A DNA stretch of 64,000 nucleotides from Escherichia coli (GTDB taxonomy: Bacteria > Pseudomonadota > Gammaproteobacteria > Enterobacterales > Enterobacteriaceae): NCBI RefSeq assembly GCF_045037415.1, contig NZ_CP173438.1; one strand, written 5' to 3'. A program made the position numbers and the translations under genes. Every line of letters starts with the position of its first letter. The first letter of the stretch is position 1. Below are positions 1,912 to 30,060 of this stretch, in pieces. The notes under the pieces are model-generated. The model saw only the letters and a list, made by a program, of their open reading frames with translations, searched no databases and had not been told where the DNA came from.

Positions 1912-4329
<2,418 letters not shown>

Positions 4330-23237: not shown

Positions 23238-23316
23238 CAACGCTTTTAACGGATACGACGCTGTATCTGACCAAAATAACTTGCGATTTATCCGGTGCGC
23301 GGTAAAACCCCGTCCT

Positions 23317-23517
23317 TCAGGGCGGGGATATAAGTTCGCCATCCATTTCAACCCGTTCAGCTTCAAAATCAGCACATACATTTGAAAAGTAAGTGCGTAG
23401 TTTTTCTGTCGCGTCATGGTCAAAAATCTGGCGTTGGTATTTGGCGACAAAGACCAGGTGAACATGCATCAGGAAAACACAATGCCTTCCACGCCGGATA
23501 TCGGTTTCTTTTTTCAT
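23317..23517 (-). pseudogene. tnpA: Truncated IS200/IS605 TnpA (HuH Y1 transposase), N-terminal fragment only
   Basis: 66 aa frame with HVHLVFVAKYQRQIF resembling the TnpA N-terminal motif (YHIVFAPKYRRQ-like); stops before the HuH and catalytic Tyr region; stop codon lies inside the left-end hairpin. Confidence 0.6.
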
Positions 23518-23539
23518 AGACCAAAATATAATTTGACCT

Positions 23540-24748
23540 GTGAAACGACTACAGGCATTTAAATTCCAGTTAAGACCCGGTGGTCAACAGGAGCGTGAAA
23601 TGAGGCGCTTCGCAGGCGCATGTCGTTTCGTTTTCAATCGTGCTCTGGCGCTTCAGAATGAGAATCATGAGGCCGGTAATAAATACATCCCTTACGGGAA
23701 AATGGCTTCCTGGCTGGTTGAGTGGAAAAATGCCACTGAAACGCAATGGCTTAAAGATTCTCCCTCACAGCCATTGCAACAGTCACTGAAAGACCTTGAG
23801 CGGGCTTACAAAAACTTCTTCCAGAAGCGGGCTGCTTTTCCCCGATTCAAAAAGCGGGGACAGAATGATGCATTCCGCTACCCGCAGGGCGTTAAGCTCG
23901 ATCAGGAAAACAGCCGTATTTTTCTGCCGAAACTTGGTTGGATGCGCTACCGGAATAGCCGTCAGGTCACGGGAGTTGTGAAAAATGTCACTGTCAGCCA
24001 GTCCTGCGGTAAGTGGTACATCAGTATTCAGACAGAAAGTGAAGTATCAACTCCGGTTCACCCTTCAGCATCAATGGTCGGGCTGGATGCTGGCGTGGCT
24101 AAACTCGCCACGCTGTCAGATGGCACAGTCTTTGAGCCTGTAAACAGTTTTCAGAAAAACCAGAAGACGCTGGCGAGACTTCAGCGACAGTTAAGCCGCA
24201 AGGTCAAATTCAGCAACAACTGGCAGAAGCAGAAACGCAAAATACAGCGGCTGCATTCCTGTATCGCAAATATCCGCAGGGACTACCTTCACAAAGTCAC
24301 AACGACCGTCAGCAAAAACCACGCAATGATAGTCATTGAGGATTTGAAGGTCAGCAACATGTCAAAGTCAGCAGCGGGTACGGTCAGCCAGCCGGGGCGC
24401 AATGTCCGGGCAAAATCAGGTTTAAACCGTTCGATACTGGATCAGGGCTGGTATGAAATGCGCCGCCAGCTTGAGCACAAGCAGCTCTGGAGTGGCGGTC
24501 AGGTGCTTGCTGTTCCGCCAGCGTACACAAGCCAGCGTTGCGCGTGCTGTGGTCATACAGCGAAAGAAAACCGCCTGTCACAAAGTAAATTCAGATGCCA
24601 GGTATGTGGATATACAGCGAACGCCGATGTAAATGGCGCTCGTAACATTTTAGCGGCGGGGCACGCCGTTCTTGCCTGTGGAGAGATGGTGCAGTCAGGC
24701 CGCCCGTTGAAGCAGGAACCCACCGAAATGATTCAGGCGACAGCCTGA
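23540..24748 (+). CDS. tnpB: TnpB (IS605 OrfB family; RuvC-like RNA-guided endonuclease family), InsQ-like
   Basis: 402 aa, GTG start; RuvC-I (VGLDAGV), RuvC-II (IVIEDLKV), zinc finger (CACCGH...CQVCG), RuvC-III ([10 protein letters not shown]); sequence recalled as IS609 InsQ-like. Confidence 0.88.
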
Positions 24749-24790
24749 ACGTAGCAGGGATCCACGTCCTTCAGGGCGTGGAGGATGTCA

Positions 24791-24830
24791 ATTCATAGGC
24801 CTGGTAAGCGCAGCGCATCAGGCCATTACG
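24791..24830. repeat. REP-like palindromic element next to the IS right end
   Basis: aggcctggtaagcgcagcgcatcaggcc resembles the REP consensus (GCCTGATGCGCT...CAGGCC). Confidence 0.5.
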
Positions 24831-24839
24831 TCGTAAAAT

Positions 24840-24861
24840 CCGGCAGAGTCCTCTCTGCCGG
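24840..24861 (-). terminator. Putative terminator downstream of hslO
   Basis: ccggcagag-tcctct-ctgccgg hairpin immediately after the hslO stop on the minus strand. Confidence 0.45.
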
Positions 24862-24870
24862 ACATACTCA

Positions 24871-25749
24871 TTAATGAACTTGCGGATCTGCCGGAGACGC
24901 GTTGTTGCGGATCTCGGCAATATCCATCGCATTGAACAGATAGTGGTTACCGCAGTAATCACAATGCATGTCAATTTCGCCATCTTCCGCCAGGATGCTA
25001 TCGACTTCTTCATCAGGCAGCGTTTTCAGCGCATCGGCGCAACGTTCACGCGAGCAGGTGCATTTGAACTCCACATCCTGCGGATCGTAAACCGTCACCT
25101 CTTCTTCGTGATACAAACGCCACAACACTTCGTTTGCCGGTAAAGTCAGCAGTTCTTCGGTTTTGATGGTTTCGGTTAGCGTCGCCAGGTGGTCAAAGTC
25201 GTCCTGCTGGGCATTTTGCGCAGGCATTACCTGCAACAACATACCGCCTGCAGCCGGTTTGCCGTCTACGTCGCCGGTGCGAATAAACAGGCGCGTCGGC
25301 AGCTGTTCAGAACGCATAAAGTAATCTTCCAGGCAGGCCGCCAGGGTATCACCTTCCAGACCAACCACGCCCTGATAGCGTTCGCCTTCGCTCGGGGTGA
25401 TGGTGATCACCACGTAACCATTGCCGACCAGCGTTTTCAGGTCGGCATTTTCTGGAATTTCGCCCTGCACGCGCGCCACACCGCGCATCTGCTGGTTGTT
25501 GTTACCGTTAATAACCGCCAGATTCATCGGACCGTCGCCTTGCAGCTGTACGGTGATATCACCATCAAACTTCAACGTAGCGGTTAACAGGCTGGTCGCA
25601 ACCAGCAGTTCTGCCAGCACGTTTTTAACGGGCTGCGGATAATCGTGATTCTCAAGGATCTGTTGCAGGGTTTCCGAAACGGTTACCAGTTCGCCGCGAA
25701 CGGCAAAGTTTTCAAACAGATAGCGATGTAATTGGTCATGTTGCGGCAT
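24871..25749 (-). CDS. hslO: Redox-regulated chaperone Hsp33
   Basis: Start trimmed to [15 protein letters not shown] (292 aa); C-terminal zinc centre CxC...CxxC. Confidence 0.94.
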
Positions 25750-29935: not shown

Positions 29936-30060
29936 TGCGTGAAGTTTACCTGATGCATAATGCTTATCAGGCTTACGAAGTTCCTGCAATTTATTGAATT
30001 TTCAATTTTTTGTTGGCCGGATAACGCGTTCACCCGCATCCGGCATAAACAAGTGCACTT
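29936..30060. repeat. REP/BIME elements between nudE and mrcA
   Basis: gccggataacgcgttcacccgcatccggc and gcataatgcttatcaggc palindromic units. Confidence 0.65.

Follow-up and report, generated by a model that had tools for sequence, protein, structure and literature searches.

An IS609-type element of the IS200/IS605 family of insertion sequences lies between the yhgE and hslO genes in a 64,000-nucleotide stretch of the Escherichia coli chromosome (contig NZ_CP173438.1 of assembly GCF_045037415.1, hereafter the window), where it carries a gene for a TnpB protein. Our analysis indicates that positions 24653-24791 on the plus strand, which include the 3' end of tnpB and extend to the right end of the element, are very probably the core scaffold of an omega RNA (right-end RNA, reRNA) belonging to this TnpB. 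Three lines of evidence point to this assignment: a covariance model that matches 24642-24791, covariation among related copies and a low level of synonymous change in the overlapping part of tnpB. An earlier note on this DNA had proposed a guide RNA running from the 3' end of tnpB through the right-end hairpin, and every feature of that proposal that can be examined in the sequence agrees with it.

The finding is real but ordinary, since it adds a further member to the class of TnpB omega RNAs, with a close relative already in the literature, and it changes nothing that is known about TnpB systems. It does describe an unannotated RNA gene of a very common E. coli element for which RefSeq lists only protein. 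In identical genomes the RefSeq annotation consists of a "transposase" and "insQ: RNA-guided endonuclease InsQ/TnpB family protein", with no RNA feature. The predicted RNA now has exact coordinates, a structure model, a transposon-associated motif (TAM) and a natural target, and it belongs to a clade of omega RNAs that Rfam does not yet cover at threshold.

A covarying structure at the 3' end of tnpB

An initial search with the protein retrieved nothing but near-identical E. coli proteins, which are useless for covariation. A scan of one genome per species yielded 66 related loci with protein identities from 95% down to 30%, and the 240 nt upstream of the right end were aligned for 46 distinct copies. 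An explicit structure of 37 pairs was tested on this alignment, with controls in which the 3' partners were slid by 1-3 columns and with 500 shuffles. In the proposed structure 93.3% of cells form standard pairs as compared with 38-50% in the slid controls, changes on both sides of a pair are found in 20 of the 37 pairs (6-15 when slid), and the covariation score of 0.301 is approached neither by the slid controls (at most 0.101) nor reached by any of the 500 shuffles. In the earlier note, the lack of a secondary structure conserved relative to other IS609-like copies would have counted against the omega RNA; the comparison found such a structure, and it covaries.

The structure comprises five helices and a pseudoknot, all on the plus strand. 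Helix A (24653-24669) is a hairpin in which 24653-58 pair with 24664-69 around the loop GGGCA, with 96% of cells paired. Its closing pair 24658/24664 is G-C in 20 copies and A-U in 24, and both of these changes are synonymous in tnpB (GCG/GCA and CAC/CAU codons). Helix B (24675-24716; 24675-79 with 24712-16) is 97% paired, has compensatory changes in the related loci L034 and L041, and encloses helix C (24684-90 with 24699-24704), where pairs alternate between G-C and A-U (31 and 12 copies at 24684/24704; 37 and 8 at 24685/24703). Helix D (24728-24752) is a hairpin formed by 24728-30 with 24750-52 and 24733-38 with 24743-48 that contains the tnpB stop codon and likewise has alternating pairs (A-U 17/G-C 16/G-U 10, with A-U/G-C at 24728/24752; C-G 31/U-A 9; G-C 21/A-U 9/G-U 12).

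Helix E is the right-end hairpin at 24762-24781, CCACGTCC-TTCA-GGGCGTGG, which as RNA would have the 3' arm GGGCGUGG and a UUCA loop. It is evident as an inverted repeat (the arms reported by a repeat search, 24761-24770 and 24773-24782, are 90% complementary), as a covarying helix with changes on both sides in six of the eight pairs of 24762-69 with 24774-81, and in a sub-threshold alignment to the HgcC RNA family. The earlier note had placed this hairpin 15 nt after the tnpB stop, a distance that holds when the count begins at the first stop-codon base and becomes 12-13 nt when it begins at the last. Finally, positions 24660-62 in the loop of helix A are predicted to form a pseudoknot with GUC at 24787-24789, for which 99.3% of cells are compatible. 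The 3' strand of this pseudoknot is part of an invariant terminal motif, GGAGGATGTCAA (24780-24791), which is kept in relatives down to 51-60% protein identity and directly after which the sequences of these same relatives are unrelated.

Helices A, B and C lie wholly within the tnpB reading frame and helix D spans its stop codon, so that four of the five helices are upstream of the right-end hairpin. Constraint at the nucleotide level is also apparent in the codons of this part of the gene. Using identical-residue codon pairs that differ synonymously, restricted to four- and six-fold codons in 17 orthologues of equal length, we obtained a synonymous divergence of 0.20 for tnpB codons 370 and beyond versus 0.52 for the rest of the gene. 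The last 20 codons combine the lowest amino-acid identity (0.67) with a synonymous measure, taken over all codon classes, of 0.129. The 251-nt stretch also folds more stably than shuffled versions of itself (z = -2.85).

A covariance model, R1, was built with the tested structure on 26 relatives from outside Escherichia and contains no Escherichia sequence. It finds one full-length match in the window, at 24642-24791, with 167.8 bits, an E value of 2.7e-52 and a single non-standard pair, while a second, weak match covers only the left-end hairpin of the element (15.5 bits). The scaffold of a full IS609 scores 171.9 bits. Among the related loci nearly all matches occur at the 3' ends of tnpB genes, as do, with a single exception, those that exceed 50 bits. 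As a separate observation, a degenerate second scaffold-like sequence of 49.5 bits is present in Citrobacter amalonaticus (L061, 2370-2498, minus strand), inverted and some 20 nt outside the right end that belongs to a tnpB fragment.

A permissive Rfam search of 24500-24900 adds a family context. Three of the four best-scoring matches are on the plus strand at 24621-24801 and involve HgcC (RF00062; 23.6 bits against a gathering threshold of 50, E 0.002), sot0042 (RF02656; 17.0 against 88) and RAGATH-18 (RF03064; 25.4 against 44.9); by Rfam criteria the scaffold is not a member of any of the three. These are RNA families that overlap or follow tnpB-type genes, and the matches to them are on the same strand. 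The motifs held in common are the terminal hairpin with GGAGGAxGUCA and CCUGUGGAG...UGAAGCAGGAA, the latter being where the RAGATH-18 match falls, in the region of helices B and C. RAGATH-18-derived RNAs are described in PMC11061315 as guides of IS607 TnpBs, and sot RNAs are cited as tnpB-overlapping RNAs.

Several other pairings were considered and not adopted. RNAalifold proposed a long-range helix between 24645-51 (ACAUUUU) and 24782-88 (AGGAUGU) that is compatible with 98.8% of cells and has no both-side change; it overlaps the pseudoknot strand, and ISAba30-3, which has the same 3' end, breaks two of its seven pairs. The segment 24645-24652, AAYATTTTA (Asn-Ile-Leu), is itself almost invariant in the 46 relatives, even at its rare leucine codon TTA, and its pairing with AGGAUGU at 24782-88 may be either a real alternative helix or a coincidence. 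The CCUGU strand of helix B has two possible partners, as duplicate-like motifs, GAAGCAGGAACCCAC (24709-24723) and GTAGCAGGGATCCAC (24751-24765), flank helix D. Pairing with the proximal GCAGG at 24754-58 and with the distal strand at 24712-16 both fit most sequences, and the compensatory changes in L034 and L041 fit the distal strand only, so that covariation favours the distal partner over a possible alternative fold. Two shorter pairings fared worse and were rejected: UUGA at 24707-10 with UCAA at 24788-91 is paired in only 63-93%, and CCC at 24719-21 with GGG at 24757-59 has one position paired in only 20 of the 46 sequences.

Relationship to characterised omega RNAs

The proposed scaffold is similar in its arrangement to the omega RNA of ISDra2 from Deinococcus radiodurans (Karvelis 2021, PMC8612924). 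Both are on the sense strand of tnpB and overlap the 3' end of the gene together with the right end of the element, both would take their guide from the flank (which contributes the last ~16 nt of the ISDra2 RNA), and in both the TAM corresponds to the target site of the transposon. The ISDra2 scaffold is folded into stems 1-4 and a pseudoknot of -5 to -3 with -103 to -105; stem 3 lies within stem 2 (-84 to -81 with -35 to -32), and the loop of stem 4 is UUUA at -20 to -17 (Nakagawa 2023, PMC10097598). These cryo-EM positions are recovered in the ISDra2 sequence given in Table S3 of PMC12781874. Helix B and its flanking motifs correspond to stem 2, with CCUGUGGAG...GAAGCAGGAACCCAC here as compared to CUCAUGGAG...GAAGUGAGAAUCAC in ISDra2, helix C corresponds to stem 3, and helix E corresponds to stem 4 as a terminal hairpin with a 4-nt loop (here -22 to -19) about 20 nt from the guide. 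Additionally, positions -5 to -3 form a pseudoknot with a distal loop in ISDra2, and in the window loop positions 2-4 of helix A (GGC) are complementary to GUC.

There are also clear differences between the two. The TAM is TTTAT (TTAY) here and TTGAT in ISDra2, the pseudoknot joins G(G/A)C with GUC here and GAA with UUC in ISDra2, and the scaffold measures ~139 nt instead of 116 nt. Helix D is an extra covarying hairpin, placed between the terminal hairpin and the counterpart of stem 2. The tnpB stop codon is found at -46 to -44 here and near -10 in ISDra2, and the TnpB of the window has a 15-amino-acid insertion after E267.

The pseudoknot gains support from a broader comparison. In ten published scaffolds the equivalent position is taken by a hairpin whose 5-nt loop is of the GGRNA type, with loop positions 2-4 complementary to -3 to -5. 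Furthermore, the third loop letter covaries with -5, being C/G in IS609, ISDge10, ISAam1 and ISAba30 and A/U in ISYmu1, ISBth16 and ISCsa5; the equivalent GAA of ISDra2 likewise pairs A with U. Both the compatibility of the pairing within the alignment and this cross-family register and covariation, which match the pseudoknot in the ISDra2 cryo-EM structure, suggest that the pseudoknot forms in the IS609 RNA. As listed in Table S3 of PMC12781874, ISDge10, ISAam1, ISAba30 and ISYmu1 share the GGRNA-type hairpin complementary to -5 to -3 and differ from the window scaffold in primary sequence and, where it is listed, in TAM; ISAba30 additionally has helix D and the GGAGGAUGUCAA end.

The same table (Nucleic Acids Res 2026) includes a 207-nt "IS609 omega RNA scaffold". 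This sequence is identical to positions 3046-3252 of a Pantoea agglomerans plasmid among our related loci (L024). It aligns without gaps to window positions 24585-24791 with 83% identity and the GGAGGAUGUCAA end in both, and many of the 35 substitutions that separate the two are compensatory. The guide designed for it begins with TTAT. In that paper the scaffold represents a metagenomic relative that was used in vitro with a designed guide, and neither the E. coli chromosomal copy nor its natural guide is described there. Among the papers searched, none dealt with an IS609 or insQ RNA of E. coli.

Element boundaries, target site and predicted guide

The ends of the element were located by joining both flanks and searching complete E. 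coli genomes for the uninterrupted allele. This empty allele, with TAM and target, is found in ~1820 complete genomes. In strain AR_0013 it reads ...AACTTGCGATTTAT/TTCATAGGCCTGGTAAGCGC..., also written ...GCGATTTAT/TTCATAGGCCTGG... or GCGATTTAT/TTCATAGG, where the slash marks the joint. The element therefore occupies window positions 23292-24791 (1500 bp), immediately 3' of TTTAT and with no target duplication. Its right terminus is GGAGGATGTCAA, the last element base being 24791, and the comparison with the empty allele identifies GTCAA as the cleavage site at this boundary. A full IS609 inserted in a TetR gene (L001) and the insQ copy of K-12 (L002) have both ends in common with the window copy and diverge from it directly after GTCAA, so that three independent E. 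coli insertions agree on the ends.

At the left, the end of the element (23292-23335, plus strand) can be aligned to the corresponding end in full IS609 copies and contains the hairpin CCCCGTCC-TTCA-GGGCGGGG at 23308-23327. The TTTAT target site, the presumed TAM, is directly 5' of it at 23287-23291 on the plus strand. TTAY (TTAT or TTAC) precedes all 23 genuine left-end junctions, 22 from relatives plus the window, and TTTAY precedes 19 of these; the genera represented include Escherichia, Citrobacter, Serratia, Yersinia, Morganella and Pantoea. From these junctions the target site, and with it the expected TAM, is TTTAY. The site is present in only a subset of E. coli: K-12 and strain A22 (L003 and L006) lack an 81-bp segment downstream of yhgE that bears the TTTAT target and half of a REP (repetitive extragenic palindrome), and the last yhgE codons also differ in these two strains (the window stretches compared were 23238-23291 and 24792-24811).

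By analogy with ISDra2, the first 16-20 nt past the boundary, TTCATAGGCCTGGTAAGCGC at 24792-24811 on the plus strand (also written UUCAUAGGCCUGGUAAGCGC and beginning with TTCATAGGCCTGGTAAGC), are the predicted guide. As expected of a guide, the sequence at this position is unrelated in other copies, with the three E. coli copies and more than 40 loci diverging after GTCAA. The target of the predicted guide would be TTTAT followed by the flank, that is, the empty allele of the same site.

The earlier note had suggested that any guide would derive from a REP-containing flank, and the exact boundary at 24791, the defined TAM and a flank that is REP-bearing from its sixth base are all consistent with this suggestion. 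That note also had the element abutting the REP at 24791; the REP is indeed in the flank, with its palindrome starting 5-6 nt beyond the boundary (24798). This REP-like imperfect palindrome (24797-24825, assigned to neither strand) pairs GGCCTG at 24798-24803 with CAGGCC at 24819-24824, is present in the empty allele and is thus part of the flank rather than of the element. That it is a member of a repeat family is evident from a median of four partial matches per E. coli genome, from a relative with three mismatches at 29962-29979, and from sub-threshold matches to the REP-derived Rfam family naRNA4, which occur on both strands around 24797-24862. When off-targets of the REP-derived guide were sought, the only matches were partial REPs that either lack the TAM and first guide bases or contain mismatches, and there are therefore no obvious extra targets. 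For example, a REP-like sequence at 29962-29979 on the minus strand has three mismatches to the predicted guide and is preceded by GGAAC instead of TTTAT, which makes it an implausible target. The location beside a REP appears to be incidental, as neither of the other two E. coli insertions has a REP next to it.

Proposed function and competing explanations

How the RNA is transcribed and processed, its binding by TnpB, DNA cleavage and any effect on this strain are matters of inference. A tnpB transcript would continue beyond the stop codon, cross the right end and enter the flank, and TnpB would bind the folded scaffold composed of helix A with its pseudoknot loop, helices B and C, helix D and the right-end hairpin E. 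Trimming of this RNA would leave 16-20 nt of flank (TTCATAGGCCTGGTAAGC...) as the guide, and the resulting complex would cut TTTAT (TTAY) followed by guide-matching sequence, which is the transposon-free joint of the same site. A lost copy could then be restored by recombination, or an incoming empty allele converted. As tnpA is truncated in this copy, the joint would have to be formed by a transposase provided in trans or be brought in by gene transfer.

A number of observations weigh against this interpretation. The truncated tnpA means that the window copy cannot by itself generate the joint that its RNA would target. The window copy also has one A.C mismatch in helix C (A24684 with C24704), and the pseudoknot exhibits no both-side change within the IS609 clade, its support coming from the cross-family comparison. 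The right-end hairpin must be kept as DNA for TnpA as well, which makes its covariation not specific to RNA. A search of the whole window with Rfam at gathering thresholds gave no match. Finally, a scan for sigma-70-like promoters on the plus strand of the 3' half of tnpB found none, and the RNA must therefore derive from the tnpB mRNA.

The alternative that survives best, though we think it unlikely, is that the scaffold is encoded in a copy that is now inert. In such a relic the absence of a transposase would mean that the joint never arises, and a complex, if made, would do nothing in this strain. In its favour, an internal deletion has reduced the tnpA remnant (23317-23517, minus strand) to 66 codons, and helix C has its one mismatch. 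In addition, 549 of 5426 complete E. coli genomes (~10%) have the insertion at this same yhgE-hslO site, which suggests vertical inheritance rather than activity. These points are countered by the condition of tnpB (insQ; 23540-24748, plus strand), an intact open reading frame of 402 amino acids with a GTG start and a TGA stop at 24746-24748. The protein has the Pfam domains HTH_OrfB_IS605, OrfB_IS605 and TNB, aligns with ISDra2 TnpB (8EXA) at an E value of 1.6e-53 with D183/E267/D363 at the positions of the catalytic D191/E278/D361, and keeps both CxxC pairs of its zinc finger (CxxC...CxxC). Judged by this alignment, the RuvC D-E-D triad is intact, and at least 1000 contigs encode the identical protein. 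The scaffold of the window copy also scores comparably to that of the full IS609, and the empty alleles in ~1820 complete genomes could meet the copy via gene transfer.

A more specific form of the omega RNA interpretation is that the transposase-less derivative persists as a pure homing element that cuts and converts incoming empty yhgE-hslO alleles. We consider this speculative and rather improbable. If true, the insertion would represent allele drive without transposition, with a guide that matches an allele found in about one third of complete genomes.

IS200/IS605 ends act as DNA hairpins. It could accordingly be argued that conservation at the right end reflects only recognition of a hairpin and cleavage site by TnpA, with no RNA involved, and the near-identical hairpins at the two ends together with GTCAA at the boundary would fit such an explanation. 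Helix E does double as the DNA hairpin of the transposon end. Helices A-D, however, are 10-130 nt upstream of the hairpin, within tnpB or over its stop codon, where they covary by synonymous changes and would be of no use to a transposase acting on a DNA hairpin. The left end has no equivalent of helices A-D, and their layout copies that of the ISDra2 RNA, so that a role confined to DNA is highly improbable.

Even less credit can be given to two further explanations. The conserved block could consist of 3'-end elements of the tnpB mRNA that act as a terminator, a stabiliser or in translation coupling, as the stop codon within helix D and hairpin E after the reading frame might suggest; hairpin E, however, is followed by GGAGGAUGUCAAUUCAUAGG without a U-run, a scan for intrinsic terminators found none on the plus strand after 23620, and the block stops exactly at the element boundary with the pseudoknot and stem layout of a solved guide-RNA scaffold. 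Equally remote is a takeover by the host in which TnpB and its RNA serve, for example, as an RNA-guided regulator of REP-bearing sites, since an intact tnpB without tnpA and a guide overlapping a REP with genome-wide relatives are offset by a catalytic triad that is intact, unlike in the known exapted TnpB regulators (TldR), by REP relatives that lack the TAM and first guide bases or are mismatched, and by unrelated flanks in other copies. An omega RNA scaffold remains the best explanation of 24653-24791.

Distribution and additional features of the locus

The gene order in the window is pckA, yhgE, the insertion, hslO, hslR and yrfG. The full IS609 in the TetR gene measures 1748 bp as compared with 1500 bp here, and this comparison, together with the list of open reading frames, accounts for the tnpA remnant by an internal deletion of ~248 bp that has kept the HUH region. 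The deletion (in window 23292-23517) fuses the left-end hairpin region ...GGGGATATAAG to mid-tnpA sequence TTCGCCATCC.... With its ends, target and tnpB present and without the full tnpA that an autonomous IS609 requires, the element is a non-autonomous derivative; it cannot move alone, and its excision would need a transposase in trans.

Decay of tnpA beside tnpB extends well beyond this site. A near-full-length copy of this tnpB is present in ~4857 of the 5426 complete E. coli genomes, and most of those sampled are the ydcO-adjacent copy known from the K-12 insQ locus (ydcL-ydcO), with a tnpA pseudogene and an intact tnpB. That so much of the species keeps an intact nuclease gene beside a decayed transposase gene is worth a look.

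Two further features of the sequence deserve mention. Convincing covariation was not found at 24278-24337 (tnpB codons 247-266, around E267), nor was a plus-strand promoter match. Synonymous change in this segment is also low, at 0.20-0.23 versus 0.52 gene-wide, with nucleotide blocks that are nearly invariant across genera. Lastly, a perfect 10-bp hairpin (24839-24848 with 24853-24862) follows the REP, just downstream of the convergent hslO gene.

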